64,000 bases of DNA from contig CAYZYT010000007.1 in assembly GCA_964482725.1 (NCBI GenBank), positions 19,875-83,874 on the forward strand, given 5' to 3'. The notes below the pieces were generated by a model that saw nothing but the letters and a program-made list of their open reading frames with translations, was not told the origin of the DNA and did not search any database. Both the position numbers and the translations under genes were made by a program. Of the stretch, positions 1 through 36,568 are shown piece after piece. The DNA is from an uncultured bacterium. GTDB taxonomy: Bacteria; Omnitrophota; Omnitrophia; Omnitrophales; Aquincolibacteriaceae. Position 1 is the first letter of the stretch, and each line of letters begins with the position of its first letter.

Positions 1-1931
1 ACAACAGGCTCGATGATGTCATCACGGAAGTCAAAGCAGGCTCCGGGACCGAGGTCGTTCTTTATTCCTCCGGGAGTGGCCCCGGCGCAGATCTTACTGA
101 AACCTACCTTGATTCGACCTCGACCGGTGCGTCCAGTCATTATTATGCCGTGCTGGGTAAGGGCACGGTCGGAAGCGAGAATTATGTGATCGGCAGGAGC
201 GGTAATGGGAGTACGAGAATGCTCGCGGGATCCGGGAGTGTCTATCCTCTTAATATCTGGACGAACGAGGATAACACGTTTGTTCGTTACGTCGCGCCTG
301 TCGTCGGCCCGATCGTCGATGGAGGCACCCAGGGCGTGGATGCAACTTTGAAAGAAATTTTTACGATCCTTCCTAATGTCCCTGTGGAGAAACCCTTGCC
401 GCCTGTGATCATTGAAGATTGGACGGGGGATGGAACTGCGGATCAGGGCGCCACGGATTTCAAAAAACTCATTGGGGATATTCCGACGATTCCGGTGACA
501 GAACCGATCGTGCTCCCGCCCAATCCGGTTGTGGAAACCGAGGTTTCGGATACCGAAACCGATGCGGTCGAGATCCCCGACCTCAATGAGGATGTGGATG
601 ACGGTGATATTTCTTTTACCGAAGAATCCTCCACGGGGCGCGAGCCCGTTCCTGTGAAAACGGACGACGAAACTGCGGGTGCGAAGACCTCTGAGGGTGG
701 AGAGACTAAGAGCGCTACCTCCGAAGAGGAGAGTGCTGTTTCGAAGGATGACGGAAAAGGTCCCCAGTGGCGCGATGTTCCGGTCACGGAAGCTCCCAAT
801 ATTAATGATCCGAAGAAATTCCTGACCGATGTTCGGGTGCTTGAAGGGACCGTGTACGTGCTCGATGGTTCCAACATCATGTCTCTTTTGGGCCGCGGGG
901 AGTCGATGAGAGTTCATTATAAAAAATCGCAGACCCGAGATCTCAGGCCCAAAGCGAAAGATCAAAATCAAAACAGCCGCAAGGAGTTGAAGCTCTTCCT
1001 TAAGGCGGACACGCAAAGTTCGATCGAGACGCTCACGCAGGCGCTCGGAAAGATCGATTCCGGGAAAGGTCATTTCAATGTGCTTCGCGGCCTCGTGGGT
1101 GAAATCCATGAGAGCGACGTGAAGCTCGCCGCGCTCTCCAAAGCGAGCATTCTCGGTCTTCGCGTAACGGCCGATCCGAAAGCCGAGGCGCTGGCAGAGA
1201 CCGAAGGCGTGGTCCTCCGTCTTTACAGCAGCATTCCGGAGGCGGTTGAGGCGCTTGGAAAAGTCATGGAAGGGACCCCGGAGCTTGTGGAGTCGAGGGC
1301 CGAGGCTGGAAACAAAACCCTGCCGGAAGAAACACCCTCGGTGAAAGGCGCGAAGAAAGAATCCACCCCCGCATCGGTGCCGGTGGCGAAGGATTCGGCT
1401 CTGGATGCGGCTGTTTCCGCAGTGACAAAGGCGTTCATGGGATCGGACGCCGCAGAGTCCCTTTCTGAGGAACCCGAGGTTTCGGCGATGTCCGAGGCGG
1501 GCATGAAGCCGGCGACGCCTGTGGTGATGGGGCGCATGGAGAACGGAACGCGCTACGGAACGCTCCGTAAACCCGGCAAGGACGTGTTTGTAAAATGCCG
1601 GGGAGGGACCTGGATGCCGGCGAAGGACGGCATGGTGATCTTGCCGGGGGATGAAGTGAAAACTGCCGCCGTCGGGTCGGTCGAAGTGGTCTTGGATGGC
1701 GGAAGGGTCGGTCGTGTTGAGATCAAAGAAGGCAGCCGTTTTAGAATTGAAAAAGCTGAGACCGATCCTGTGACGGGCGATATGACCACATTGCTGGATC
1801 TTGCGATCGGGAAGATCCTCGTGAAGGTGGAATCTCTCAAAGGTAATTCCAGGTTCGAAGTCAAAAGTCCGACGGCCCTTACCGGGGTTCGTGGCACTAT
1901 CTTTGAGGTGACGGTGAAAGAGAAAGCATAA
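1..1931 (+). CDS. 5'-partial protein with C-terminal FecR-like domain (acidic, low-complexity central region)
   Basis: Frame open from window start through ORF 150..1931 with no stop; C-terminal ~110 aa (GDEVKTAAVGSVEVVLDGGRVGRVEIKEGSRFRI...GVRGTIFEV) resembles FecR/anti-sigma sensor domain; upstream part D/E/T/S-rich. Confidence 0.55.
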   Translation, partial: NRLDDVITEVKAGSGTEVVLYSSGSGPGADLTETYLDSTSTGASSHYYAVLGKGTVGSENYVIGRSGNGSTRMLAGSGSVYPLNIWTNEDNTFVRYVAPVVGPIVDGGTQGVDATLKEIFTILPNVPVEKPLPPVIIEDWTGDGTADQGATDFKKLIGDIPTIPVTEPIVLPPNPVVETEVSDTETDAVEIPDLNEDVDDGDISFTEESSTGREPVPVKTDDETAGAKTSEGGETKSATSEEESAVSKDDGKGPQWRDVPVTEAPNINDPKKFLTDVRVLEGTVYVLDGSNIMSLLGRGESMRVHYKKSQTRDLRPKAKDQNQNSRKELKLFLKADTQSSIETLTQALGKIDSGKGHFNVLRGLVGEIHESDVKLAALSKASILGLRVTADPKAEALAETEGVVLRLYSSIPEAVEALGKVMEGTPELVESRAEAGNKTLPEETPSVKGAKKESTPASVPVAKDSALDAAVSAVTKAFMGSDAAESLSEEPEVSAMSEAGMKPATPVVMGRMENGTRYGTLRKPGKDVFVKCRGGTWMPAKDGMVILPGDEVKTAAVGSVEVVLDGGRVGRVEIKEGSRFRIEKAETDPVTGDMTTLLDLAIGKILVKVESLKGNSRFEVKSPTALTGVRGTIFEVTVKEKA

Positions 1932-2093: not shown

Positions 2094-3569
2094 ATGAAAA
2101 AACACCCGCAGCTTTTTGAAGTGAATGCCTTCTTCTTTATCTCCCGAATGTCCAAGAAATATGGGCGTCCTCTGACGCTCATGACCGTCCCGGCTTCGGA
2201 GTGGAAATCCTTCGCGGAACAGGGGTTCGATTATCTCTGGCTTATGGGGGTTTGGGCCCATAGTCCCGGGTCGGCCGAGCATGCCGCCAAGGAGCCCGGT
2301 CTTTGTCGTGCCTATGATCTGATCCTTCCGGGCTGGAAGCGCGAAGATGTGACGGGTTCTCCTTATGCCATTTTTGGTTATGAACTCGATCCTTATCTTG
2401 GCCGGCCGGAGGAATTGGCTCAGCTCAAAATGAGACTGAACGGCATGGGGCTTGGCCTCGTGCTGGATTTTGTGCCCAATCATCTTGCCTTCGATCATCC
2501 CTGGACCCTGGAGCGTCCCGAACTTTTCGTGTCCTGCCGCCCGGAGACCTTACACGCCCATCCGGAATGGTCTTTCATTACTGCTGACGGTAAAAAGATT
2601 GCGCACGGCCGGGATCCTTATTTTGCGCCGTGGATCGATACCGCGCAGATCAATTTCTGGTCTCCCCAAGCGCGCGAAGCCTGGCTCACCGAACTTCTCA
2701 AACTCGCAAAGGTCGCTGACGGAGTGCGTTGCGATATGGCCATGCTCGCGTTAAACGATGTTTTTCAAAGTGTGTGGGGCGACCATATTTCGGACACAAG
2801 GCCCTACACGGAATTCTGGGAGGAAGTGATCCCGGAAGTGAAAAAGATCGCGCCGAATTTTATTTTTATCGCGGAAGTCTACTGGGACATGGATTGGCCG
2901 CTCCAGCAACTGGGTTTTGATTTTACTTACGACAAGCGTCTTTACGACCGGATGTTCTTTGATTCCGCGACCTCGGTGGCCGATCACTTGAACGCGGAAC
3001 CGGTTTATCGCGATAAATGTCTTCGTTTTATCGAGAACCATGACGAAGAGCGGGCGACGGTGACCTTTGGAAAACAGAAATCCAGAGCCGCGGGGATCAT
3101 TGCGGCCACGGCTCCCGGACTCCGGTTTTTTTATGACGGACAATTGGAAGGACGAAGGATACGCACTCCCATTCATCTGCGGCGAGAGCCCCAGGAGCCC
3201 GTGGATCCCGTGGCGGTCGCGATCTACCGGCGACTTTTGCGTTTTATCAAAGGCCCCACGACTCACGAAGGGGAATGGACGCTCTTGCAGACCCAACCGG
3301 CCTGGAGGCAAAATGAGAGCTACAATGCGGTTCTCGCGTACCTTTGGGGCTATGGGATGGAGTGGAAACTCGTCGTGGTCAATTATTCCATGATCCGCGC
3401 GCAGGCGTCCATCCGGTTACCGGAATTTCTGAGCCGGCAATGTTTCATCCAGTTCCGGGACGTGCTGACCGACAAGGTCTACGACCGGACCGGAGAAGAA
3501 CTTCTCCAAAGAGGATTTTATGTGGACCTCCCGCCCTGGCAGGCCCACCTATTCGAGTTCAAGGTCTAG
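2094..3569 (+). CDS. glycoside hydrolase family 13 (alpha-amylase family) protein
   Basis: GH13 conserved regions visible: DFVPNH (I), GVRCDMAMLA (II, GxRxDxA), FIAEVY (III, catalytic Glu), FIENHD (IV). Confidence 0.8.
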   Translation: MKKHPQLFEVNAFFFISRMSKKYGRPLTLMTVPASEWKSFAEQGFDYLWLMGVWAHSPGSAEHAAKEPGLCRAYDLILPGWKREDVTGSPYAIFGYELDPYLGRPEELAQLKMRLNGMGLGLVLDFVPNHLAFDHPWTLERPELFVSCRPETLHAHPEWSFITADGKKIAHGRDPYFAPWIDTAQINFWSPQAREAWLTELLKLAKVADGVRCDMAMLALNDVFQSVWGDHISDTRPYTEFWEEVIPEVKKIAPNFIFIAEVYWDMDWPLQQLGFDFTYDKRLYDRMFFDSATSVADHLNAEPVYRDKCLRFIENHDEERATVTFGKQKSRAAGIIAATAPGLRFFYDGQLEGRRIRTPIHLRREPQEPVDPVAVAIYRRLLRFIKGPTTHEGEWTLLQTQPAWRQNESYNAVLAYLWGYGMEWKLVVVNYSMIRAQASIRLPEFLSRQCFIQFRDVLTDKVYDRTGEELLQRGFYVDLPPWQAHLFEFKV

Positions 3570-3616
3570 CCCTTCCCCCAATCGCATTTCACACCCGCCA
3601 GAAATTTTAAGAGCAA

Positions 3617-3985
3617 TTCCAATGCGGTGAGGCACGCTCGCGAGACGGAGCGGGCATGGTGGCTGACAGGAGTCGCCTCTCGACAACGGCTGTTCATCCG
3701 CTCCTGTCCCAATACCTATCAATTTTAACGAAGGTGAAATTGGGGCTGCCCTGATTACCTGTTGATTTATATTTGAGAATCAGGGCTGCAGCGGATGCCA
3801 GCCTGCGCTCTCGCTGATGGGACCTGCTCTTTTGAGCAGGACCAAGCTCCCATCAGCTCCGAGAGCTGTCTCGATGCGACTCCTGTCTGCCGAGTGAAGT
3901 CGAACGCGCGAGCGAAGATCGCCTCGCTGGGGCGATCTGAGCGATGACGAAACGCATTGGAATTGCCCATTGGCTGACCAGAGAT
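3617..3985. repeat. ~350-bp structured intergenic repeat, copy 1 (family A)
   Basis: Shares modules with 20328-20665: caatgcg..gag.acgctcgcgagacgga.cgggca.ggtgg; gctctc.ctgatgggacctgct...caggacc...tcccatcagctccgagagctgtctcga; tcccaatacctatcaattttaacgaag.tgaaaattggggc; gcgcgagcgaaga.cgcctcgctggggcgatctgagcgatgacga..cgcattgg; long imperfect hairpins. Confidence 0.7.
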
Positions 3986-4080
3986 GTATCCGCCACTAAA
4001 ACCGCGCTTGGAGTGTGGCGGGTTGTTTGCTAGACTGTCCCGTCTGCAATATTAACTTATCAATTTTCCCGGGAGATAAA

Positions 4081-6579
4081 ATGGCTACTGCGAAAAAGAA
4101 GGATGAGCGAAAAGAGAATCCGGAACTTTGGCACCTGGAAACTAAGGACATGACCAAAGACGGATTGAAGGAATCTTTCAGCGCCAGTCTCCACTACGGC
4201 CTTGCCAAGGACCGGTTTACCGCCACCTCTCACGATAATTTTATGGCGCTCGGGATGTCCCTGCGGGACCGGCTGGTGGAACGATGGATCCAAACCCAGC
4301 AGCGCTATCACGTGAAGAACCTCAAACGCGTCTATTATCTTTCTCTGGAATTCCTGATCGGCCGTCTTTTGGGAAATTATATTTTGAATCTCGGACTGTG
4401 GGACCAAAGCCAAAAAGCTCTCGAGGAATTCGGGCTCGATCTTGAAAAAGTCCGTGAGGAGGAGGTCGACGCGGGGCTCGGGAACGGTGGCTTGGGACGC
4501 CTGGCCGCGTGTTTTCTGGATTCGATGGCGACGCTCGGGATCCCCGCGCATGGGTACGGGATCCGCTATGACTACGGGATCTTCAATCAAAGGATCATCA
4601 ACGGCTATCAGGTGGAATCGCCGGATGAATGGCTCAAGCACGGGAATCCCTGGGAATTTGCCCGCCCGGAATACTCTCAGAAGATCAAGTTCTACGGCGC
4701 GACGAACATGTACCATGACAAAAAAGGCCGGCTTTGCGTTGAGTGGGTGAATGCGCAGAATGTTCTCGCGATGCCCTACGACACTCCGGTCCCGGGGTAC
4801 AAGAATAATGTCGTCAATACCCTTCGCCTCTGGTCCGCAAAAAGTTCCGAAGAGTTCGATCTCCAGTATTTTAATGACGGGGATTACGAGCGCGCGGTTT
4901 ACGACAAGATGTTTACGGAAAATATTTCCAAGGTTCTTTACCCCAATGACGCGACCTCGATGGGCAGGGAACTGCGTCTGAAACAGGAATATTTCTTTAC
5001 CGCAGCGTCGATCGCGGACATCATCCGCCGTTTCAAAGAAGATAATACCCTTTTTAAGGATTTCCCCGAGAAAGCGGCGATCCAGTTGAATGACACACAT
5101 CCGGCGCTTGCGATCGTGGAGTTCATGCGCATTCTTTTGGATGAAGAACAAATGGATTGGGATCTGGCTTGGGACCTCACGGTCCGGACTTTCGCCTACA
5201 CCAATCATACCGTGATGCCCGAGGCGCTTGAGTGTTGGCCTGTCGCGGTATTCGAAAAGCTTCTGCCCCGTCACATGCAGATCGTCTATGAGATCAACGA
5301 CCGGTTTCTGAAGGAGCTTTCTGCGGAATATCCGGGCGACTCGGACCGGCTGCGGCGGATGTCCCTGATCGACGAAGGCGGCGGGAAAAAGATCCGCATG
5401 GCGTACCTCGCGATCATCGGCTCTCATTCCGTGAACGGGGTTTCCGAACTGCACAGCACGCTTCTCAAAGAGCAGCTCTTCAAGGATTTTTATGAGCTGT
5501 CGCCGGAAAAGTTCAACAACAAGACCAACGGGATCACGCACCGCCGGTGGCTGATGAAGGCCAATCGGCCGCTTTCCGCGCTTATCACAGGAACGATCGG
5601 GGAAGGCTGGGAGAAGAACCTCTACGAACTGGAAAAGTTGGTGCCGCACAAGGGCGATCATCTTCTCAGGAAAAAATGGCAGCAGGTGAAGCGCGACAAC
5701 AAAAAGCTGCTCGCGGATCTGATCTTCAGGGAAACGGGTGTCCGGGTCAATGTCGATTCCATGTTCGACGTCCAGGTCAAGCGTATTCACGAATACAAAC
5801 GCCAGACCCTTTTCATCCTCTATGCGATCTCCCAATACCTGAAGCTCCGGGAGAATCCGGGCGCCTCCATCACCCCGAGGACGTTCATTTTTTCCGGGAA
5901 AGCGGCCCCGAGCTATTTTCTCGCGAAACTCATCATCAAATTCATCAATAACGTGGCGAATGTGATCAATCACGACAAGGTGAGCAAGGAGAAGCTTACG
6001 GTCGTCTTCCTTGAAAATTACCGCGTTTCCCTGGCCGAGAAGATCTTTCCGGCGAGCGATCTTTCCGAACAGATCTCGACGGCGGGGACGGAAGCCTCCG
6101 GGACGGGTTGCATGAAATTCATGATGAACGGGGCTTTGACCGTGGGGACCTATGACGGGGCCAATATCGAGATCGCCGAAGAGGTGGGGGAAGAAAATAT
6201 TTATATGTTCGGCCTCAAGGCGCAGGAAGCGCTGAAGCTGAAATGTGAGGGCTATGACCCTCAGCGTTTCATCCGGGAGTCCGCCGGCTTGCGCCAGATC
6301 TTTCAGATGATGCGGAGTAATTTCTTCTCACCGATGGAGCCGGGCATCTTTGACCCGCTCGTTCACAATCTGAGCGTGGACGATCCGTTCATGGTTTGTG
6401 CGGATTTTGAATCCTATTGCGCCATTCAGGACAGGATCTCGGAAGATTATCAGGATCAGGATCAGTGGACCGAGAAGGCTATCCTCAATATGGCGAAATC
6501 GGGGAAGTTCTCCAGCGACCGCACGATCGCCGAATATGCCAGGGATATTTGGAATGTCCCAACGAACCAGTCTAAGTGA
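4081..6579 (+). CDS. glgP: glycogen/maltodextrin phosphorylase
   Basis: Full-length alpha-glucan phosphorylase homology; PLP-site region EASGTGCMKFMMNGALTVGTYDGANIE; start chosen at ATG 4081 with gggagataaa RBS (track ORF begins at 4015). Confidence 0.9.
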   Translation: MATAKKKDERKENPELWHLETKDMTKDGLKESFSASLHYGLAKDRFTATSHDNFMALGMSLRDRLVERWIQTQQRYHVKNLKRVYYLSLEFLIGRLLGNYILNLGLWDQSQKALEEFGLDLEKVREEEVDAGLGNGGLGRLAACFLDSMATLGIPAHGYGIRYDYGIFNQRIINGYQVESPDEWLKHGNPWEFARPEYSQKIKFYGATNMYHDKKGRLCVEWVNAQNVLAMPYDTPVPGYKNNVVNTLRLWSAKSSEEFDLQYFNDGDYERAVYDKMFTENISKVLYPNDATSMGRELRLKQEYFFTAASIADIIRRFKEDNTLFKDFPEKAAIQLNDTHPALAIVEFMRILLDEEQMDWDLAWDLTVRTFAYTNHTVMPEALECWPVAVFEKLLPRHMQIVYEINDRFLKELSAEYPGDSDRLRRMSLIDEGGGKKIRMAYLAIIGSHSVNGVSELHSTLLKEQLFKDFYELSPEKFNNKTNGITHRRWLMKANRPLSALITGTIGEGWEKNLYELEKLVPHKGDHLLRKKWQQVKRDNKKLLADLIFRETGVRVNVDSMFDVQVKRIHEYKRQTLFILYAISQYLKLRENPGASITPRTFIFSGKAAPSYFLAKLIIKFINNVANVINHDKVSKEKLTVVFLENYRVSLAEKIFPASDLSEQISTAGTEASGTGCMKFMMNGALTVGTYDGANIEIAEEVGEENIYMFGLKAQEALKLKCEGYDPQRFIRESAGLRQIFQMMRSNFFSPMEPGIFDPLVHNLSVDDPFMVCADFESYCAIQDRISEDYQDQDQWTEKAILNMAKSGKFSSDRTIAEYARDIWNVPTNQSK

Positions 6580-6589
6580 AATTCTAACA

Positions 6590-6734
6590 GGCTGCTAAAA
6601 ACAGTACTCGCGTCATTCTGAGCCCCGGAGTTTCCGACCCATTCGGGTCGTAGACCCGGTGGGAGGGCGAAGAATCCCGATGAGAGATCCTTCACGATGC
6701 TGCGCATCGCTCAGGATGACGAAGTTTTTAGCAG
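6590..6734. repeat. ~113-bp palindromic element with 11-bp terminal inverted repeats (family B, copy 1, MITE-like)
   Basis: Core cgtcattctgagc...ccgacccattcgggtcg...gaagaatcccgatgagagatccttc...gctcaggatgacg (ends mutually complementary), flanked by ctgctaaaaac / gtttttagcag; near-perfect reverse complement of 8368-8480. Confidence 0.75.
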
Positions 6735-6939
6735 TTTCCTAAACAAACTCGAGACATAAAATTTTAAAATCCGAAACGCGGGTTTAGTCTTTGAGTTTTG
6801 AACATTTGAATTTGTTTAGGGTTTAGTGTTTCGTGTTTAGGATTTGACGCAATAACGGCCCCGCCACCTGTGAAGTGGCGGAGCTTAGTACATAGCCATC
6901 TGGTTTCTAAGTACTATGTGCCATGCACCATGTACTGCT

Positions 6940-8268
6940 TTACGACTTATTCCTTCCCCCCAGTTGCCGGATCCCCGTGACGCTGAAGAAAAGTTCCAGG
7001 CTCGATATTTGTTGCGCCACAAGCCGTACTTCCCGGAATTTTTCGGAAAGAATGAAGTGCGACAGGAATCGCAGTACTCCCGAGATCAAAAAGACGGTCA
7101 GGATCGCGGATCCCCGGAACGGTAACACGCGTTCGACAAGAAATCCTCCCGTCGCGGCACCCAGAAAGATCGCAATGCCCGTGATGACGGCGAAGTAGCT
7201 CAGGCAGCGGATCCTCTTACCGGAGCTAACGGCTTCGTAGATGAAATTCAGTGCGCAGAGATTGAAACCTCCCCACACGAATCCGGAAAAGATCTCCACG
7301 CAGATCAGATAGGCGGGGAGGGGCGAGACCATCCAGAGCAGCGGGATCGCTGGGATGAGCAGGCTTGTGAGTTTGAGGATCTTCGCGTTTCCGACCGAAT
7401 CCGCATGCCTTCCCCATATCGGAAAGGAGAGAAGGCCTGCGGCGACAGACGTGAAGCGGATGGCCATAAAGAGAAGATAATTAAAGTGAAGGTCGCTGAG
7501 CATGTAGACGCTGAAGAAGGGCGCGGCAAGGTTCGTCGCGAACATAATGCTTGCGACATAGAATACGAATTTCACGAAATTACTTTGCCGGAATCTCCGG
7601 AGGAACATGAAGAACGTGAAGTGGCTTTCCGGTGTTTTAACGACCGGAAGATCCTGCATCCGCGCCATGAGTCCCGCGGAAAGGAACCGGGCCAAGGTGG
7701 CGACCGCGACGAGGATCACAAAACCGGCTGCTTGAAGATGCCCCTGATAGCTGAAAAGAAGCGCGCCGCCCCAAATTGTGCCGAGCATGCCGGCGATACC
7801 GACGAGCCTTGAGCGCCATCCGAAATAGCGGCCCCGTTCCTCGGCCGGAAGATAATCGCTCGTCAGGCTGCCCCAGACCGTGCTGATGACGCTTCCGAAG
7901 GTCCGGAAAAAGGTCACACATACGATAAGGACCCCGATCCTCCAGGAGCCGGTTAGGCACGGAAGAAAAGCGATCGGAAGCAGGCAAAAGGCTTGCCCGG
8001 CCGCGCTGCTCACGAGAGAGCGGAGCCGGCTGCCTTTCATCAGGTCCACCCACTTCGAGGTCCAAAGCTGGAGGACGGAGCTGACGAGGGTTGGGACGGC
8101 CACGAGGAACGCGATCTCGGCCGGGGTGGCGCCGAGAAAAAGAGCCAGAGGAATGGAATAATCATCGGCGAGGGACTGCATGACGCTCGCGGGGAGGCCT
8201 TCCTTCCAGGAGATCTGAAGGCTCTTCAGGTAAGGATTTTCTCTGAGTTGTGCGAAGATTTTTTCCAT
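6940..8268 (-). CDS. MFS family transporter (12 predicted TM helices)
   Basis: Hydrophobic 12-TM profile, MFS loop motif WGRHADSVGNAKILK; start placed at internal ATG 8268 preceded by gaggggg RBS because the ORF-track start (8373) lies inside the inverted repeat element. Confidence 0.7.
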   Translation of the reverse strand: MEKIFAQLRENPYLKSLQISWKEGLPASVMQSLADDYSIPLALFLGATPAEIAFLVAVPTLVSSVLQLWTSKWVDLMKGSRLRSLVSSAAGQAFCLLPIAFLPCLTGSWRIGVLIVCVTFFRTFGSVISTVWGSLTSDYLPAEERGRYFGWRSRLVGIAGMLGTIWGGALLFSYQGHLQAAGFVILVAVATLARFLSAGLMARMQDLPVVKTPESHFTFFMFLRRFRQSNFVKFVFYVASIMFATNLAAPFFSVYMLSDLHFNYLLFMAIRFTSVAAGLLSFPIWGRHADSVGNAKILKLTSLLIPAIPLLWMVSPLPAYLICVEIFSGFVWGGFNLCALNFIYEAVSSGKRIRCLSYFAVITGIAIFLGAATGGFLVERVLPFRGSAILTVFLISGVLRFLSHFILSEKFREVRLVAQQISSLELFFSVTGIRQLGGRNKS

Positions 8269-8354
8269 GACGGTGGCCCCCTCTGTTATCGGCAAGAACA
8301 AAGCCTTTAATGAGCTTGCGAGCGCATCTCTTCGCATGGGGATTCCACGCAAAC

Positions 8355-8495
8355 TGTTGAAAAACTTCGTCATCCTGAGCGATGCGCAGCATCGTGAAGG
8401 ATCTCTCGTCGGGATCCTTCACCCTCCCACCGGGTCTACGACCCGAATGGATCGGGAACTCCGGAGTTCAAAATGACGCGAAGGGTGGTTTTTAA
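8355..8495. repeat. family B palindromic element, copy 2 (inverted relative to copy 1)
   Basis: cgtcatcctgagcgatgcgcagcatcgtgaaggatctctcgtcgggatccttcaccctcccaccgggtctacgacccgaatggatcgggaactccggagttcaaaatgacgcg = reverse complement of 6609-6721 with few mismatches; flanked by gttgaaaaac / ggtttttaac. Confidence 0.75.
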
Positions 8496-8597
8496 CGGTA
8501 TGTCTGATGCAAGGGCGCTATCGTTTTTGTGGGGCGTGGTGTATACTTTCCGTAGTCATTGCTTCTTCCTCGAAGTTTGTCAGCCAGTGGGGTGAAA

Positions 8598-11500
8598 ATG
8601 AAATTGGATGGCGGGAAGCACCTGGTGGATGGGAAATATTCCATCAAAGACTTGGTAGATCTGGAAGAGTTAAGAGCTCTGTTCCAGAGTTTTACCGATG
8701 CCATGGGCTTTACCATCGGCTTTTTGAGCACTCCCGAGCTTGAGATCCTCATTGCCACAGGATGGCGAAAGATCTGCACCCAATATCACCGGAACTGTCC
8801 CCTCGCCGCAGAAAGATGCCGAATCAGTAACGCCAGGCTTGTCCGTCACTGCAAACGCCCCGGCCAGATCATTATTGAAGCTTGCGAGAATGGACTCGTG
8901 GATTGCGCGACTCCGATCATCATCAAAGGTAAAAAGGTCGCCATTCTCGCGACCGGCCAAGTACTTCTCAAGCCCCCCAATATCGAACATTTCAGAAAAC
9001 AGGCGAAACTCTATGGCTGCAACAAGGCCGCCTATCTCAGAGCCCTGAAAGACGTCCCCGTTATTTCCCCCAAAAAACTAAAGCAAGCCACGCGATTTCT
9101 TGGCCAATTGGCGCATACGATCATCCAGATGGGATATGCCAGCCTTGAGGAAAAGGAACGTAGCGAATTGTTGTCGCGCGAGATCCATCAACGCAAAAAT
9201 TTGGAAGAGGCATTACGAGTCAAGAACCGTGCCTTTGACATATCTCTGGCGGCCACGAGTATTGCCGACACGAGGGGCGTTATCACCGAGGCTAACGATG
9301 CGTTCCTTCGGGCTTGGGGCTGCCGGAGCCGTGGGGAGGTCATCGGCAAGCCCCTAGCGCATTTTTTAAATGATCCGAGAGAGGCTACAGCCATTTTCCG
9401 GGCTCTTAACAAACAGGGGCGATGGGAGGGAGACTTTATAGCGAAGAAGAGAGACAGATCAACATTTATTGCGCACACTCAGGCGACGGCCGTATTGAAT
9501 GAGAGCGGTAAATTGATCGGATATCAATCGGCGGTAGCAGACATCACCGAGCGCCAGAGGGCGGAGGAATCCCTTCAGGAAAGCGTTAAGGATTGGAGGG
9601 ACACATTCGATGCGGTCAATGATGCTGTGTGGCTTCTCAGCCTGGATGGAAGGATCCTTCGGGCCAACAAATCAACCCGTTCGGTGCTTGGGAAAAAGCC
9701 GGAAGAGATCCTTGGGCGCCGTTGCTGTGAAGTGGTCCATGGTTCCCGAATACCTCCCATCGAATGCCCCTTGCATCGTATGCGGAAAAGTCGTCAGCGT
9801 GAATCCTGGGAATTTCAGGATTCGAACCGTTGGTTCCGGGTCACAGTCGATCCTATCTGGGATTCTAAAGGAGTCCTGATCGGGGCTGTTCATATCGTTA
9901 GCGATATTACAGCCCGCAAAGAAGCGGGAGAAGCGCTTCTGGCGAGCGAAGATCAATACCGGAATATTTTTGAGAGCTCCCAGGATGCCTTGATGACGCT
10001 GGAGTCTCCTAGCTGGAAGTTTACCTCGGCCAATACGGCCATGCTGCGGATGTTCGGGGCAAAAAATGCCGCGGAGCTTTTTTCTCATGCTCCTTGGGTT
10101 CTTTCTCCCAAGCTGCAGCCGGATGGGCGCTCTTCTGCCAAGAAGGCCAAGAAAATGATCCAAATAGCGATCCGCCAAGGTTCTCACGCCTTCGAGTGGA
10201 CGCACCGACGGATTGATGGAACGGCGTTCCCCGCCGAAGTTCTCTTGACGAGAGTGGTTAAGGACAAGGACAAGGACAAGGACATAGTATCCCTCCAGGC
10301 AACGGTCAGAGATATCACGGCGCGCAAAAAGTCGGAGGAGGCTTTGCGGGAGAGTGAAGAAAAATTTCGTCTTATGTTCAACACATCGGCTGCCGGGATG
10401 GCGATGTGCAACATGGACGGTTCTCTTGTCGAAGTGAACCAGGCTTATTTAGATATTATTGGCTATACGCGCAAAGAAGCCCTGAGACTTAGCTATTGGG
10501 ATCTGACGCCGAAGAAGTATGCCAAGGATGAGGCCCGACAACTTCGCTCCATGGAATTGACTGGAAAATACGGTCCTTATACGAAGGAGTATATTCGAAA
10601 AACAGGCGAGCGGGTTGACGTGATGCTCACCGGGGCCGTTGTGACGGGGGCGGATGGGGTGAAGCGTATCTGGTCGCTTGTGGAGAATATCACCGAGCGC
10701 AAGCGGTCGGAGGAGCTGTTGAAACAGCGTGAGGCCTACTTGACAGCCATTGTGGATAACCAGTCCGGGATGGTCTGGCTGAAGGACAAGGAAAGCCGGT
10801 TTCTGGCCGTGAACCAGGTATTCGCCAAAATGGCCGGCAAGAAAAAGCCCGAGGATGTGGTGGGGAAGACCGATCTTGATTTCTGGCCTCCCGAAATGGC
10901 TAAGGGATATCGGGCCGATGACCGGAAAGTGATGCGAAGCCGAAAATCTGTCTCGGTGGAGGAACTCATCTCCGAGAAAGGCGTCGCTCGGTGGCATGAG
11001 ACTTTCAAGACCCCTGTTTTTGACTCGGACGGAAAAGTGATCGGGACGACCGGCTATGCCCGGGATATCACGGAGCGCAGGCGTGCAGAAGAGGCTCTTC
11101 AGGAGAGCGAAAAACGCTTTCGCGTTGTGGTAAATAATTCGCTCGATCTTGTTTACCGGCGGAACATCCAGACCGGCCGGTATGATTTTTTTAGCCCGGC
11201 GGTCAAGAAGACGCTCGGTTTTTCATCAGAAGAATTGATCGGCAAAAAACTGAGCTTTGCCACAAGTCGGATTCATCCCGAGGATCTCAAGGTGATAATG
11301 CCTGTGCTGAAAAGAGCCCAGGCCGGCCTTCAGAGGAGCGGTATCGTCGATTATCGATGCAGACACAAAGATGGAACTTATCGATGGCTTTCTGATCGTT
11401 TTACGATCGTTGATGACGCGAACGGACGGCCCTTTTATTGGGTAGGGGTTTCTCGAGATGTTACCGCTGCCAAGGTGTCGGCCGAGGCGCTGAGGAAAAG

Positions 11501-13295
11501 TGAAACCGAGAAAAAACTAGTTTTAGACAATATCCCGGACCTGGTTGTTTATCAGGATACAAAAAACAAAATCATCTGGGCGAATTCCTGCACCGCGAAG
11601 GCCTTCGGTAAAACTGTTGGGGAACTGAAGGGAGCCACTTGTTATAAGGCGTTTTATAACCTGGATCGGCCATGCGCCGGATGTCCTGTCAACAAGTGTA
11701 AAAAAACGGGTCTTTTGGAGCAAATGGAAATGGTTTCTTCCGATGGCAGATGTTGGATGATCTCCGGCAGTCCTGTTAAAGATGCGTCCGGTACGGTGGT
11801 CGGTATTGTAGAAGTAGCCGTCAATATTACCGATCGCAAAAAAGCGGAAGAAAGATTGCTCTTCGTAAATAAAGCGATCGAATCTGTCAATGTTGCGATC
11901 GGGATCTCGGACGCTCAGGGGCATCATTTTTATCAAAACAAGGCTCTGTCCGATCTATTCGGATACGCAACAGCCCAAGAACTGGATGCGGCAGGGGGGG
12001 GATCGAAGGTTGTTAAGGATCCCAACGTGGCCAAAGAAATGTTCAGCACTGTTCATAAAGGAAGATCCTGGGCAGGTGAGTTGGAGATGGTAACGAAAAA
12101 TGGGCGTGTATTTCCTGCCTATGAACGTGCGGACGCCGTAAGAGACAGCAAGGGAAATATCATGGGACTCATTGGAGTCATAACCGATATTACCGAGCGA
12201 AAACGGGCTTTGGATTCTCTCCGGGAGCACAGGCACCAATTGCTGCAGGTCATTGATACTGTGCCGCACATGATCTTTGCGAAAGATCAAAAAGGCCGGT
12301 TCCTTCTTGCCAATCGCGCAGTTGCAGAAGCCTATGGAAAGGAACCGAAAGATCTTATCGGTGTTCGGCATCAGGATGTTCACAAAGATCGTCAGGAGAT
12401 GAAGGAATTCTTTAAAGGTGACCGGGAGGTTCTGTCGTCCCTTAAACCCCAACTCGTTGCGAATGAGCCCTTCACGGACAGCCGGGGCAATAGGCATATT
12501 CTTCAGACGATCAAGATCCCTTTTAAAATGATCGGAATCAAAGACCCTTGTATCCTGGGAGTGTCGGTCGATGTGACGGAACAAAAGAAGGTCGAAGAAT
12601 TCCGTAACGATATTGTAAGGACGGTGTCCCATGAGCTTCGCACACCTCTTTCGATCGAGAAGGAAGGGATCAGTCTTCTCGTGGATGAGATGGTGGGCCC
12701 AGTGAATGCGGAGCAAAAGGAGATTCTTGAAACGGTGATGCGGAGTATCGATCGCCTGGCGCGCATGATCACAAGTCTTTTGGATATCTCAAGTATCGAG
12801 ACCCGGAAGATCCATCTTTTGCAAAAGGTGACGAATCTGGTGGATCTCGTGAATGATGTGGCGTTCGAGTTTAAAAAGCGCGCGGAGGACAAAGGCATTG
12901 AACTCGGCGTAAAAGTGCCAAGGCGTTTGGTGCGGGTTTTTGTGGATGGGGACAAGCTCCTGCAGGTTTTGAGCAATTTGGTGGATAATGCCATCAAATT
13001 CACTCCGAAGGGCGGGACGGTGGGGATTGCCCTCAATGTAATGAAGAATTCCGTGGAATGCGAGGTTCGGGATACCGGGATCGGGATTGCTCCCGAGAAT
13101 ATGGGAAAACTGTTTGAAAAATTCCAGCAATTTTCAAGGAAAGCCGGGCCCGGGGAAAAAGGGTTCGGTCTTGGGCTTTCAATCGCCAAGGGGATCATTG
13201 AATTGCACGGAGGCCAGATCTGGATCAAAAGTGAACTCGGCAAGGGAACTCAGGCGACCTTCTCACTGCCGCTCCATCAGACGGAAGGGGATTGA
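8598..13295 (+). CDS. sensor histidine kinase with N-terminal PocR-like sensory domain and ~9 PAS/PAC domains
   Basis: N-terminal PocR-like region; repeated PAS signatures (ITERKRAEE.../DITERKR... boundaries); HisKA H-box VSHELRTPL; HATPase_c G-boxes RDTGIGIAPENMGKLFEKF and GFGLGLSIAKGIIELHGG; ATG 8598 with ggggtga RBS. Confidence 0.85.
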   Translation: MKLDGGKHLVDGKYSIKDLVDLEELRALFQSFTDAMGFTIGFLSTPELEILIATGWRKICTQYHRNCPLAAERCRISNARLVRHCKRPGQIIIEACENGLVDCATPIIIKGKKVAILATGQVLLKPPNIEHFRKQAKLYGCNKAAYLRALKDVPVISPKKLKQATRFLGQLAHTIIQMGYASLEEKERSELLSREIHQRKNLEEALRVKNRAFDISLAATSIADTRGVITEANDAFLRAWGCRSRGEVIGKPLAHFLNDPREATAIFRALNKQGRWEGDFIAKKRDRSTFIAHTQATAVLNESGKLIGYQSAVADITERQRAEESLQESVKDWRDTFDAVNDAVWLLSLDGRILRANKSTRSVLGKKPEEILGRRCCEVVHGSRIPPIECPLHRMRKSRQRESWEFQDSNRWFRVTVDPIWDSKGVLIGAVHIVSDITARKEAGEALLASEDQYRNIFESSQDALMTLESPSWKFTSANTAMLRMFGAKNAAELFSHAPWVLSPKLQPDGRSSAKKAKKMIQIAIRQGSHAFEWTHRRIDGTAFPAEVLLTRVVKDKDKDKDIVSLQATVRDITARKKSEEALRESEEKFRLMFNTSAAGMAMCNMDGSLVEVNQAYLDIIGYTRKEALRLSYWDLTPKKYAKDEARQLRSMELTGKYGPYTKEYIRKTGERVDVMLTGAVVTGADGVKRIWSLVENITERKRSEELLKQREAYLTAIVDNQSGMVWLKDKESRFLAVNQVFAKMAGKKKPEDVVGKTDLDFWPPEMAKGYRADDRKVMRSRKSVSVEELISEKGVARWHETFKTPVFDSDGKVIGTTGYARDITERRRAEEALQESEKRFRVVVNNSLDLVYRRNIQTGRYDFFSPAVKKTLGFSSEELIGKKLSFATSRIHPEDLKVIMPVLKRAQAGLQRSGIVDYRCRHKDGTYRWLSDRFTIVDDANGRPFYWVGVSRDVTAAKVSAEALRKSETEKKLVLDNIPDLVVYQDTKNKIIWANSCTAKAFGKTVGELKGATCYKAFYNLDRPCAGCPVNKCKKTGLLEQMEMVSSDGRCWMISGSPVKDASGTVVGIVEVAVNITDRKKAEERLLFVNKAIESVNVAIGISDAQGHHFYQNKALSDLFGYATAQELDAAGGGSKVVKDPNVAKEMFSTVHKGRSWAGELEMVTKNGRVFPAYERADAVRDSKGNIMGLIGVITDITERKRALDSLREHRHQLLQVIDTVPHMIFAKDQKGRFLLANRAVAEAYGKEPKDLIGVRHQDVHKDRQEMKEFFKGDREVLSSLKPQLVANEPFTDSRGNRHILQTIKIPFKMIGIKDPCILGVSVDVTEQKKVEEFRNDIVRTVSHELRTPLSIEKEGISLLVDEMVGPVNAEQKEILETVMRSIDRLARMITSLLDISSIETRKIHLLQKVTNLVDLVNDVAFEFKKRAEDKGIELGVKVPRRLVRVFVDGDKLLQVLSNLVDNAIKFTPKGGTVGIALNVMKNSVECEVRDTGIGIAPENMGKLFEKFQQFSRKAGPGEKGFGLGLSIAKGIIELHGGQIWIKSELGKGTQATFSLPLHQTEGD

Positions 13296-18624: not shown

Positions 18625-20301
18625 ATGGGAATGTTCTGCTTTCAGTGCGAACAAACATCTAAAGGAAAAGGCTGCGACGTGAAGGGAGTTTGCGGGAAAA
18701 CGCCCGAGGTTGCGACGCTTCAGGATCTTTTGGTCCACGCGACAAAAGGGATCGCTATTTATGCGCATTTGGCTCGCGAGATCGGTGTGAAGGATTCGGC
18801 GGCGGATCATTTTGTGATCGAGGGTCTTTTTGCGACTGTGACGAATGTGGATTTTGATCCTAAAAGGCTTCAGGAGACGCTCCTGCGCGCTTATGCGATC
18901 AAGGAAAACATCAAAAAGCTTTTCCTGGACGCCTATAAAAAGAAGGTCGGGCATGATTTTGACGGGGAGCTTTCGGCCACGGCGTATTGGAAACCTGCAG
19001 ACAGTCTGGCGGGACTTGAAGAACAGGGAAGCAAGGTCGGCGTTCTCTCCGACAAAACATTGAATGAGGATATCCGGAGCCTTCGCGAGCTTCTTCTTTA
19101 CGGGCTCAAGGGGATGGCGGCCTATGCGGACCACGCGTATGTGCTGGGTCGGGAGGATGATGAGGTCACGGCGTTCTTCCATAAAGGGTTGCGCGCACTT
19201 ACCGACAACAGTTTGACCGTTGATGATCTTGTGGGGCTGAACATGCAGTTCGGGATGGTGAATCTCAAATGTCTCGAGCTTCTGGACAAGGCGCACACCG
19301 ATCATTTCGGGCATCCGGTGCCGACGGGCGTATCACTGGGTGTGAAAAAAGGGCCTGCGATCCTGGTGTCGGGGCATGATCTGCTCGATCTGGAACAGCT
19401 TCTTCAGCAGACGGAAGGCAAGGGTGTGAACATTTATACGCACGGCGAGATGCTGCCGGCGCACGGGTACCCGGGCCTTAAAAAATACAAGCATCTTGTC
19501 GCCAATTACGGCGGCGCGTGGCAGGACCAGGCCCAGGAATTCGACGCGTTTCCGGGTGCGATCCTCATGACCACGAATTGCATCCAGCAGCCGCGCGAAA
19601 GTTACAAGGGCCGGATCTTTACGACGGGTCTTGTGGCGTGGCCGGGGGTCGAGCACATCAATCCCGTGAACGGGAAAAAAGATTTTTCGGCGGTGATCAA
19701 GAAAGCGATCGCGGCCGGCGGTTTTTCTCAGGACATTCCCGCGAAGAACATCGTGGTCGGGTTTGGCCACAACGCGGTGCTGGGGGTTGCGGACAAGGTC
19801 ATTGGCGCAGTGAAAGCGGGACAGATCAAACATTTTTTCCTGGTGGGCGGATGCGACGGCGCGAAGCCCGGAAGAAATTACTACACGGAATTTGCTGAAC
19901 AGGCGCCTAAGGATACGGTGATCCTGACGCTTGCGTGTGGCAAATATCGTTTTAACAAGCTTGAGTTCGGGGATATCGGCGGCATCCCGAGACTTCTCGA
20001 TATGGGGCAGTGCAATGACGCTTATTCTGCGATCCAGGTAGCGGTCGCGTTGGCGAAAGCTTTCGGTTGCGGCGTGAACGATCTGCCGCTTTCGATGATC
20101 CTTTCCTGGTACGAGCAAAAGGCGGTCTGCATTCTGCTGACGCTTTTGGCGCTTGGGATCCAGAATATCCGGATCGGGCCTTCGCTTCCGGCGTTCGTCA
20201 GTGCGAACGTGCTCAGCGTGCTTGTCGAGAAGTTCAACATCAAGCCCGTGACCACGGCCAAAGAAGACCTCGCCGCGATCCTTGGGACTGTAAAAGCCTG
20301 A
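18625..20301 (+). CDS. hcp: hydroxylamine reductase / hybrid-cluster protein
   Basis: N-terminal Cys cluster MFCFQCEQTSKGKGCDVKGVCGKT, full-length 558 aa HCP architecture. Confidence 0.9.
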   Translation: MGMFCFQCEQTSKGKGCDVKGVCGKTPEVATLQDLLVHATKGIAIYAHLAREIGVKDSAADHFVIEGLFATVTNVDFDPKRLQETLLRAYAIKENIKKLFLDAYKKKVGHDFDGELSATAYWKPADSLAGLEEQGSKVGVLSDKTLNEDIRSLRELLLYGLKGMAAYADHAYVLGREDDEVTAFFHKGLRALTDNSLTVDDLVGLNMQFGMVNLKCLELLDKAHTDHFGHPVPTGVSLGVKKGPAILVSGHDLLDLEQLLQQTEGKGVNIYTHGEMLPAHGYPGLKKYKHLVANYGGAWQDQAQEFDAFPGAILMTTNCIQQPRESYKGRIFTTGLVAWPGVEHINPVNGKKDFSAVIKKAIAAGGFSQDIPAKNIVVGFGHNAVLGVADKVIGAVKAGQIKHFFLVGGCDGAKPGRNYYTEFAEQAPKDTVILTLACGKYRFNKLEFGDIGGIPRLLDMGQCNDAYSAIQVAVALAKAFGCGVNDLPLSMILSWYEQKAVCILLTLLALGIQNIRIGPSLPAFVSANVLSVLVEKFNIKPVTTAKEDLAAILGTVKA

Positions 20302-20327
20302 ATAGGCATCGCTGGGCTGCAATAAAA

Positions 20328-20665
20328 TCCCAATGCGAAGAGGTACGCTCGCGAGACGGAACGGGCACGGTGGCGGGCAGGAATCGTCCCTCGACACCGG
20401 CCGTTCACTCGCTCCAGCGGCGAGTGACAGCCTGAGCTCTCACTGATGGGACCTGCTAGCAGGACCCATCTCCCATCAGCTCCGAGAGCTGTCTCGAGAC
20501 GATTCCTGCCCGCCGAGTGAAGTCGGTCCCAATACCTATCAATTTTCACGAAGTGAAAATTGGGGCAGTCCTTGTTTACGATCAAGAGAAAAAATGACAA
20601 GGACGGCGCGCGAGCGAAGAGCGCCTCGCTGGGGCGATCTGAGCGATGACGAGGCGCATTGGGAT
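20328..20665. repeat. ~350-bp structured intergenic repeat, copy 2 (family A)
   Basis: Same modules as 3617-3985 but with the tcccaatacctatcaattttcacgaagtgaaaattggggc module relocated downstream of the long hairpin. Confidence 0.7.
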
Positions 20666-20795
20666 TGAAAGGTATGTTCTGTGGAAGGGAATCCGTTTGA
20701 TATGCGAAGGATTCCGTGATGTAATACAGCGCAATTTTTGGGACCCTCGCGGGGATACGACGTGGGGGTTTTTCTCTCTTAATAAAGGCGGAACT

Positions 20796-22627: not shown

Positions 22628-22690
22628 GCGTCATTCTGAGCGAAGCGAAGAATCTCGAAAGGAGATCCTTCACTCCGTTCAGGATGACGG
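22628..22690. repeat. short nested-hairpin element related to family B ends
   Basis: gcgtcattctgagcgaagcgaagaatctcgaaaggagatccttcactccgttcaggatgacgg: outer stem gtcattctgagcg/cgttcaggatgac, inner stem gaagaatctc/gagatccttc; sits between nadA stop and ilvD start. Confidence 0.5.
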
Positions 22691-35770: not shown

Positions 35771-36514
35771 ATGTTAGAGATCAAAAATTTACATGTCAGC
35801 GTTGAAGGTGTCGAGATCCTGAAAGGGATCGATCTTTCGGTCAAGGCCGGAGAGGTGCATGCCATCATGGGGCCGAACGGCTCGGGAAAAAGCACGCTTA
35901 CGCGTGTCCTGGCCGGTCATCCGTCGTATGTCGTGACGCAGGGGAGCGCGACGTATGAAGGGAAAGACCTTTTTCAAATGGCGATCGAGGACCGGGCGCG
36001 CCAGGGAGTTTTTCTCGCGTTCCAGTATCCGATCGATATCCCGGGCGTGAATAACGCCTATTTTCTAAAAGCCGCCGTGAACGAAACCCGGAAAGCCAAA
36101 GGCCTTGAAGAACTGGACGCCATGGAGTTCCTGGAATTCCTCAAAGAGAAAATGAAACTCGTGGAAATGGATGAGAGCTTCCTCAATCGTCCCGTGAACG
36201 AGGGTTTTTCGGGCGGCGAGAAGAAACGCAACGAGATCCTCCAATTGGCGGCGCTCTCGCCCAAACTCGCTATTCTGGATGAAACCGATTCGGGATTGGA
36301 TATCGATGCCCTGAAGATCGTCTCGGAAGGTGTGAACCGTTTACGCAATCCCAGCCGCTCATTTATTCTTGTGACGCATTACCAGAGAATGCTCAACTAT
36401 ATTGCGCCGGACTATGTGCATGTCCTGATGGGCGGAAAGATCGTCCTGTCGGGCGGCAAGGACCTCGCTTTCAAACTTGAAGAAAAAGGGTATGAGTGGG
36501 TGAAAGGAGACTAG
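35771..36514 (+). CDS. sufC: Fe-S cluster assembly ATPase SufC
   Basis: Walker A GPNGSGKSTL, ABC signature FSGGEKKRNEILQ, Walker B AILDETDSGLD. Confidence 0.9.
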   Translation: MLEIKNLHVSVEGVEILKGIDLSVKAGEVHAIMGPNGSGKSTLTRVLAGHPSYVVTQGSATYEGKDLFQMAIEDRARQGVFLAFQYPIDIPGVNNAYFLKAAVNETRKAKGLEELDAMEFLEFLKEKMKLVEMDESFLNRPVNEGFSGGEKKRNEILQLAALSPKLAILDETDSGLDIDALKIVSEGVNRLRNPSRSFILVTHYQRMLNYIAPDYVHVLMGGKIVLSGGKDLAFKLEEKGYEWVKGD

Positions 36515-36515
36515 G

Positions 36516-36568
36516 GACTACAGACGAGAGACCGGAGACTCTAGTCTCTTGTCTCGGGTCTCAAGTCC
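36516..36568. repeat. GAGAC/GTCTC heptad palindromic element between sufC and sufD
   Basis: gactacagac-gagagac-cggagac tcta gtctc-ttgtctc-gggtctc-aagtc. Confidence 0.6.

Follow-up and report, generated by a model that had tools for sequence, protein, structure and literature searches.

A structured intergenic repeat with a covarying fold and nested insertions of a second element in Omnitrophota-type genomes

The window analysed here, a 64,000-nt stretch of one contig from an uncultured Omnitrophota bacterium, contains two intergenic copies of a composite repeat (Table 1). Copy 1 begins 44 nt past the stop codon (3567-3569) of an alpha-amylase-family gene and is followed by glgP, and copy 2 begins 23 nt past the stop codon (20299-20301) of a hydroxylamine-reductase (Prismane) gene and is followed by a radical-SAM/nadA operon. 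An earlier note on this DNA had reported two related stretches of ~350 bp at these places, and a repeat search bore this out: five blocks, colinear or shifted, are common to 3615-3965 and 20326-20667 at 83-93% identity, marking the two stretches as copies of one repeat. Their refined ends lie 115 nt before the ATG of glgP (4081) and 128 nt before that of the radical-SAM gene (20796), where the coordinates of the earlier note give ~95 and ~130 nt. Searches of the 64-kb window with nhmmer and cmsearch returned copies 1 and 2 at E = 1e-60 to 1e-98 and no third or further copy. Reading frames differ between the copies, none being conserved; the 67-aa minus-strand ORF of copy 1 indeed has no counterpart in copy 2, as had been pointed out before. 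The repeat is without coding potential. Both copies fold far more stably than dinucleotide shuffles of the same sequence (z = -8.8 for copy 1 and -7.8 for copy 2).

Table 1. Positions of the repeat copies, their structural parts and adjoining features.
Sequence	Feature	Positions	Strand	Remarks
Window	Copy 1, composite repeat (a core with one small element nested in it)	3614..3965	+	cmsearch 320 bits
Window	P1 5' arm, copy 1 (CAATTCCAATGCG)	3614..3626	+	pairs with 3953-3965
Window	P1 3' arm, copy 1 (CGCATTGGAATTG)	3953..3965	+	pairs with 3614-3626
Window	P3 5' arm, copy 1	3661..3685	+	pairs with 3867-3891; 25 nt, 84% complementary
Window	Nested small element, copy 1, 79 nt, in P4 loop	3707..3785	+	target-site duplication CTG, 3704-3706 and 3786-3788
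Window	Large hairpin P5 (ctgatggga...tcccatcag), copy 1	3814..3856	+	tip varies most within the core
Window	Terminator-like hairpin, CCGCCAC...GTGGCGG then GTTGTTTG	3990..4029	+	downstream of copy 1; kept in relatives without the element
Window	Copy 2, composite repeat	20325..20667	+	cmsearch 225 bits
Window	P1 arms, copy 2 (AATCCCAATGCG / CGCATTGGGATT)	20326-20337 and 20655-20666	+	closing stem
Window	P3 5' arm, copy 2	20372..20396	+	pairs with 20490-20514; 25 nt, 88% complementary
Window	Nested small element, copy 2, 77 nt, at junction of P3/P2 3' strands	20527..20603	+	target-site duplication CGG, 20524-20526 and 20604-20606
Window	Host-locus hairpin GGAATCC...GGATTCC with TTGATA-N17-TGTAAT promoter-like spacing	20688..20729	+	kept in relatives without the element
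L014 (NCBI MAG)	Core copy			small element at third core site
L015 (Logan)	Core copy			without nested element
L016 (JGI)	Core copy			two nested elements
L017 (JGI)	Core copy, upstream of efp	~727-969	-	P4-3', P5 and P3-3' absent

One shared block, GTCCCAATACC...ATTGGGGC, has an offset between the copies that differs from that of the other blocks. In copy 1 it occupies 3706-3752, on the 5' side of the large hairpin; in copy 2 it is found at 20526-20572, on the 3' side. Both the shifted module and the large hairpin of the earlier note are therefore real. When a piece of ~80 nt is taken out of each copy, the remainders are colinear over ~270 nt and 84% identical. This ~270-nt core has a branched fold, closed by a stem of 13-15 bp (P1, CAATCCCAATGCG / CGCATTGGGATTG; 12-13 bp in the two window copies) and made up further of P2, a long helix P3 with P4 and P5 as its hairpins, and P6 as 3' hairpin. 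The sequences CAATCCCAATGCG / CGCATTGGGATTG form terminal inverted repeats that are found in all core copies, with compensated variants.

The piece taken out is a small element of ~80 nt (77-81 nt) with two hairpins, TCCCAATAC...ATTGGGGC followed by a second, variable one. In copy 1, removal of the small element together with one copy of its flanking triplet gives GCTCCTGCAGCGG, in agreement with GCTCCTGCGGCGA, which stands uninterrupted in other copies; with the element excised in this way, the core reads as in uninterrupted copies. A perfect 3-nt target-site duplication was present at seven of seven independent insertions seen: CTG, CGG three times, CAG and TAG, plus a CGG around an unrelated two-hairpin insert at one core site. 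The duplicated triplets of the small element read CNG or TAG. The apparent module shuffling therefore represents independent insertions that duplicate their target; the recombination or modular assembly proposed earlier for the shifted module gives way to insertion of one ~80-nt element at three core sites. The three sites are in the loop of P4, at the junction of P3 and P2, and in the 5' strand of P3, the last being used in L014 and L016, and the reconstituted helix is spared each time.

Further copies of the core were sought in public collections. An exact-pattern scan of GTDB genomes gave a single true locus, L004, on a contig of a Candidatus Omnitrophota MAG; the five other matches in that scan (L002, L003 and L005-L007) were chance or coding matches. 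In JGI metagenomes, the exact-pattern scan returned the same contig again (L013) and four loci without an element match (L009-L012), and the scan of viral sequences gave no core match. A viral match to the small element (L008) proved to lie in a phage contig, on a duplicated stretch of 243 nt that lacks the element's hairpin. Scans for the 3'-end motif in GTDB genomes, JGI metagenomes and viral contigs, which needed exact matches, recovered only short copies. Loci L014-L017 were reached by way of a spurious ORF on the minus strand of copy 2, which served as a protein query before HMMER was used for an exhaustive search. Altogether seven copies are known as DNA (two in the window and one each in L004, L014, L015, L016 and L017), and two more (P0001 and P0005) are known only as spurious ORFs, from protein and context. 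The sources are Omnitrophota-type MAGs and metagenomes, where alone the family has been seen so far, and the cores are 82-89% identical in all pairs.

The small element occurs in ten copies at five loci, four of them outside cores. Standalone copies are found in L004 at 5436-5516 (CAG/CAG) and, on the minus strand, at 610-689 (TAG/TAG), and in L016 at 243-322 (CGG/CGG). Both of its hairpins covary, with 10 of 21 pairs compensated among the ten copies. Its ends, TCCCAAT... and ...CAAGGA/CAGGG, share only ~3-4 complementary bases. At exactly the core site that the small element occupies in L014 and L016, L004 carries an unrelated two-hairpin insert of ~79 nt (182-260) flanked by CGG/CGG, which points to a hot spot of structure or sequence (GGTGG|CGG|ACAGG) common to two types of element. 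The motif TCCCAAT is present near the 5' end of both the core and the small element (20328-20334 and 20527-20533 in copy 2), paired with ATTGGGA/ATTGGGG; judged by this motif, recognition of both elements by one protein is a possibility.

Nested elements also travel with the core. A passenger at the P4-loop site (site a) with a distinctive CCTGATT second hairpin is common to copy 1 and the L016 copy, and a passenger at the P3/P2 junction (site b) is common to copy 2 and the L017 copy, in each case at different loci, indicating that the composite spreads as a unit. The L017 copy is a broken one: its left flank is of the site-a type and its right flank of the site-b type, consistent with a deletion by homologous recombination between two nested elements. 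In L014, a diverged, partial 5' fragment of another core (4709-4761, minus strand; model positions ~23-80) is situated directly upstream of the full copy and suggests nesting or tandem remnants of cores.

The genes next to the copies are mutually unrelated (glgP, the radical-SAM/nadA operon, a TrpB-like PALP gene, porA, pckG, efp, ygiQ-like and rluA-like genes); the TrpB-like neighbour occurs twice, and these two are probably orthologous. Six of the seven DNA copies start 17-80 nt past the stop codon of a co-directional gene, and the orientation is sense in all five tandem gene contexts. The gene upstream is divergent in L004 and in the contigs of P0001 and P0005, and in L015 the next gene is convergent, leaving no downstream sense gene.

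To compare orthologous sites, relatives' loci were reached through cluster members of the flanking proteins. In L018 and L019 (79-82% nucleotide identity) the amylase-glgP spacer is 124 nt long and lacks the element. In the much closer sister strain L024 (96.5% identity), ~46-57 nt stand where the window has the 352-nt element. At the hcp-radical-SAM locus, the place of the element is taken by a 32-nt hairpin in L023 (4288-4319; about 92% identity) and by a 52-nt perfect palindrome in L020-L022 (76-79% identity; L020 11690-11741); homology with the window picks up exactly at the 3' end of the element. Neither core nor small element was found in 43 kb of the relatives' syntenic DNA. The spot just past the hcp stop codon has hairpin-forming sequences that turned over in every lineage examined.

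These comparisons bear directly on the proposal that the repeat is a cis-regulatory leader, of riboswitch or attenuator type, for glgP and radical-SAM/nadA. At most loci the element does lie upstream of plus-strand genes in the sense direction, and it is a large conserved structure. However, the relatives' orthologous glgP and radical-SAM/nadA genes are without it, the genes downstream are functionally unrelated, L015 has no downstream sense gene at all, and the copies are too alike in sequence for ancient paralogous leaders. Moreover, conserved host sequences resembling terminators and promoters stand between the element and the downstream genes. The terminator-like hairpin downstream of copy 1 belongs to the host locus rather than to the repeat, since it is kept where the element is absent. 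Behind copy 2, the GGAATCC...GGATTCC hairpin followed by TGTAATAC recurs in L023 (4344-4385) and L020 (~11743-11784) within a surrounding spacer that is not conserved. The TTGATA-N17-TGTAAT stretch there appears promoter-like by inspection and was not called by a consensus scan; hairpin and TGTAATAC could be a promoter, an operator or a small leader of the radical-SAM/nadA operon, and the Rfam nadA-motif gave no match to them. The empty orthologous sites largely refute a leader function of the repeat itself, and we regard it as scarcely credible.

The L024 site holds a further peculiarity. The first 29-30 nt of the stretch that stands in for the element (2429-2458) match the reverse complement of the 3' end of the core, an exact 13-mer included, at the same left junction as in the window. 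This opposite-orientation remnant is not explained by a simple insertion or deletion or by an empty site. It could fit a reading of the repeat as an inverton, that is, a segment between 13-15-bp inverted repeats that is flipped by a site-specific recombinase and thereby controls its neighbours, and such a model would also accommodate the perfect terminal inverted repeats around an intergenic segment of ~270-350 bp beside genes and the lack of a target-site duplication. Against it, the seven assembled copies are oriented alike with respect to co-directional neighbours, the element as a whole forms a nested palindrome instead of a unique stretch framed by two repeats, no internal promoter was seen consistently in the element, and no recombinase gene was seen among the window ORFs outside 8559-13295 and 40398-63173. 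The relatives' empty sites show insertion or loss, not flipping. We therefore consider an inverton very improbable. In the 5' flank of copy 1, the sequence CCCCCAATCGCATTTC (3583-3596) resembles the closing-stem halves CCAATGCG / CGCATTGG joined without an interior, and a similar stretch is also present in L024.

Alignment of the six full cores gave a consensus structure of 95 pairs in 12 helices, with 95.6% of the cells paired. Thirteen pairs were changed on both sides, compared with 4.0±1.5 in 500 column shuffles, none of which attained 13, and with 0-3 in controls in which the structure was shifted by 1-3 columns. In P1, where a T>C in one arm is matched by an A>G in the other between copies 1 and 2, four pairs are changed on both sides across the six copies, and P3 (helix 5) likewise has four compensated pairs. 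Conservation is highest in the subterminal regions of the core and lowest at the hairpin tips (8% of columns 138-162, the tip of P5, are invariant). The core fold is under constraint.

Covariation of this kind is a hallmark that a functional structured RNA gene or module would share, be it a novel ribozyme, an RNA that binds a protein or one of the guide type; it would exist in several copies and keep its fold for its function as RNA, the turnover as DNA being secondary. Such an RNA would fit the branched fold, the long invariant junction stretches (e.g. GAGACGGA, GAGTGAAGTCG and CTGGGGCGATCTGAGCG), the sparing of helices by all three small-element sites and by the second insert in L004, and the uniform sense orientation in tandem contexts; in addition, cores from different genomes are at least as similar to each other as is the coding DNA of genus-level relatives (76-84%). 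Several observations speak against it. Orthologous sites are empty even at 96.5% identity and a broken copy persists, the unrelated flanks exclude a conserved promoter, and Rfam holds no match. Of the paired columns 70% are invariant, a higher share than the 53% of the unpaired ones. A strand signature is also lacking: newly arisen G.U and A.C states balance out (12 versus 12) and the plus and minus strands fold about equally well. Because of this symmetry, strand counts do not distinguish a fold acting as RNA from one acting as single-stranded DNA. An inspection by eye for guide-like complementarity between the variable P5 loop and the flanks gave nothing consistent. Taken together, we judge a functional RNA to be unlikely as the primary identity of the core, and keep it as a minority view.

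No known family accounts for the repeat. The whole window gave no Rfam 15 match at the gathering threshold, and relaxing the cutoff to E<=10 for copies 1 and 2 and the insert-free L015 copy, at 381-662 on the minus strand, gave chance-level matches only, such as C/D-box snoRNAs and CRISPR-DR58 (21.6 bits, against a threshold of 38). The earlier note had allowed for an explanation by a known element family, and this check turned out negative; with no Rfam match, we take the family to be undescribed. BLAST against plasmids and phages gave no match, and nothing was found in the literature on Omnitrophota repeats or ncRNAs. Likewise, no Pfam match to a transposase, reverse transcriptase or integrase was obtained among the scanned window ORFs (those outside 8559-13295 and 40398-63173), and no Y1 transposase was present among the ORFs checked in the 64-kb window. 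For the core itself, no recurrent direct repeat was detected when all boundary offsets and lengths of 2-9 nt were compared across the seven copies, and no conserved flanking target emerged, the 5' flanks sharing only a loose (G/A)AG.

The closest parallels are found among small mobile and interspersed repeats of other bacteria. With MITEs (Correia/CREE, RUP and Nezha) the elements have in common a small size, the lack of coding sequence, multiple copies, presence/absence polymorphism, a hairpin fold and nesting. The fixed-length duplication at every insertion of the small element, which is multi-copy and both standalone and nested, is MITE-like, as are the 13-15-bp terminal inverted repeats of the core and its presence or absence at orthologous sites (L018/L019, L024 and L020-L023). 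However, the terminal inverted repeat of the small element measures only ~3-4 nt, compared with the at least ~10 bp matching a parent insertion sequence that would be typical; the core lacks a target-site duplication; and for neither was a parent insertion sequence found whose ends match.

REP/BIME sequences and RAYT-mobilised REPINs resemble the core in being extragenic, often just 3' of genes, palindromic, transcribed with their neighbours (as the core probably is), free of target duplications, clustered or nested, and subject to compensatory changes that keep the hairpin. They differ in that the core is ~3-10 times longer and branched rather than a simple hairpin or doublet, and has no conserved GTAG-type tetranucleotide; instead of a 20-40-nt unit in very high copy number, it is a 270-nt fold with two copies in 64 kb. 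BOX elements of Streptococcus pneumoniae and ERIC/IRU elements of enterobacteria are, similarly, modular-looking structured intergenic repeats of 100-350 nt, co-transcribed with genes and of unknown or indirect mobility. There is no sequence relationship to these, and the modularity seen here arises from a nested, duplication-flanked insertion, not from variable numbers of box subunits. Lastly, palindrome-associated elements of the IS200/IS605 group and omega/HEARO-type RNAs are also structured, non-autonomous and without target duplication, and single-strand transposition could produce an orientation bias like the one observed. The core stands apart from them in having terminal inverted repeats and no conserved 5' tetra- or pentanucleotide; no HEARO or other Rfam match was obtained, and no TnpA, TnpB or IscB was seen nearby among the window ORFs scanned.

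In summary, we have described a repeat family with a covarying fold, nested insertions with duplications, and presence/absence polymorphism. Its gain or loss between near relatives, its decay and its spread with a passenger directly show dynamics at the level of DNA. We consider it probable that the core represents a new lineage-specific family of non-coding, structured interspersed repeats, comparable to MITE, REPIN, BOX and ERIC elements, that carries a second, nested element. Of the three candidates put forward in the earlier note (a cis-regulatory leader, a small ncRNA family and a non-autonomous mobile element), the mobile element is thus the supported one, because of the presence or absence at orthologous sites, the decayed copy and the occurrence of the same passenger at different loci.

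As DNA, the core behaves as a sequence that comes and goes while strains and species diverge, and its nested passenger goes with it when it spreads. On this interpretation, the core would be non-autonomous and mobilised in trans, with its fold, as single-stranded DNA or as RNA, being the feature recognised; recognition of the fold would explain both the compensatory changes and the better-conserved ends. The small element transposes and duplicates 3 nt of its target, and has inserted independently at three helix-sparing positions of the core. Since the core follows stop codons or precedes genes and is always in sense in tandem contexts, it is probably co-transcribed with its neighbours, and untranslated regions would then contain a very stable structured RNA, as is the case with REP/BIME, ERIC, BOX and Correia elements. 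Such a structure could affect termination or mRNA stability.

Some of the evidence pulls the other way. Compensatory evolution and insertions restricted to helix-sparing positions are equally expected of a functional RNA, and the orientation bias (five of five) hints at a strand-specific constraint linked to transcription. No target-site duplication or conserved flanking target of the core was detected, no autonomous partner or mobilising enzyme was seen in the window ORFs scanned or in the exact-match scans of genomes and metagenomes with 3'-end motifs, which gave a single additional contig, and only a handful of copies are known. One could also envisage the core as a new class of self-propagating structured element whose branched fold, and not an end sequence bound by a transposase, would be the substrate of an undescribed palindrome- or hairpin-directed route without target duplication, perhaps RNA-guided or ribozyme-like, and would serve in addition as a specific landing pad for the second element. 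Two of the three insertion sites offer the same CGG as target within a defined structural setting, and the unrelated two-hairpin insert uses one of the two as well; we rate this scenario as rather improbable.

Looking forward, a structured-RNA candidate that seemed to consist of shuffled modules can be read as one mobile repeat nested in another, which calls for caution in the discovery of ncRNAs in uncultivated phyla. Two undescribed repeat families would thereby be added to Omnitrophota-type genomes, one of which duplicates 3 nt cleanly and prefers defined sites in the other. The presence or absence of the element provides strain-level markers. A constrained core fold lacking a recognisable transposition signature makes the mobilisation mechanism worth testing.

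The window contains other repeats. An inverted repeat of 133 nt (6597-6729 and 8360-8492, 90% complementary) brackets an ORF (within 6597-8492) that encodes an MFS transporter, not a transposase. The repeat contains a CGTCATCCTGAGCGATG...GTGAAGGATC motif, and a 29-nt piece of it recurs at 22645-22673. Since the extra spacer length is missing at the orthologous L018 locus, it appears to be a third family of intergenic repeats. Arrays of 7-nt units (GACTACA/GAGACNN and the complementary AGTCTCC) form inverted-repeat hairpins at 1934-2021, 36513-36567, 40858-40974, 41369-41471 and 42361-42465; the first two sites are intergenic, and the other three, spaced ~497 and 994 nt apart, lie in the open 5' part of a giant ORF. 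Giant ORFs of this sort are typical of Omnitrophota. The frame in question (40398-63173) is a single open one of 7,591 aa with internal repeats, and its first ~2 kb, which hold the 7-nt-unit hairpins, are putatively coding.
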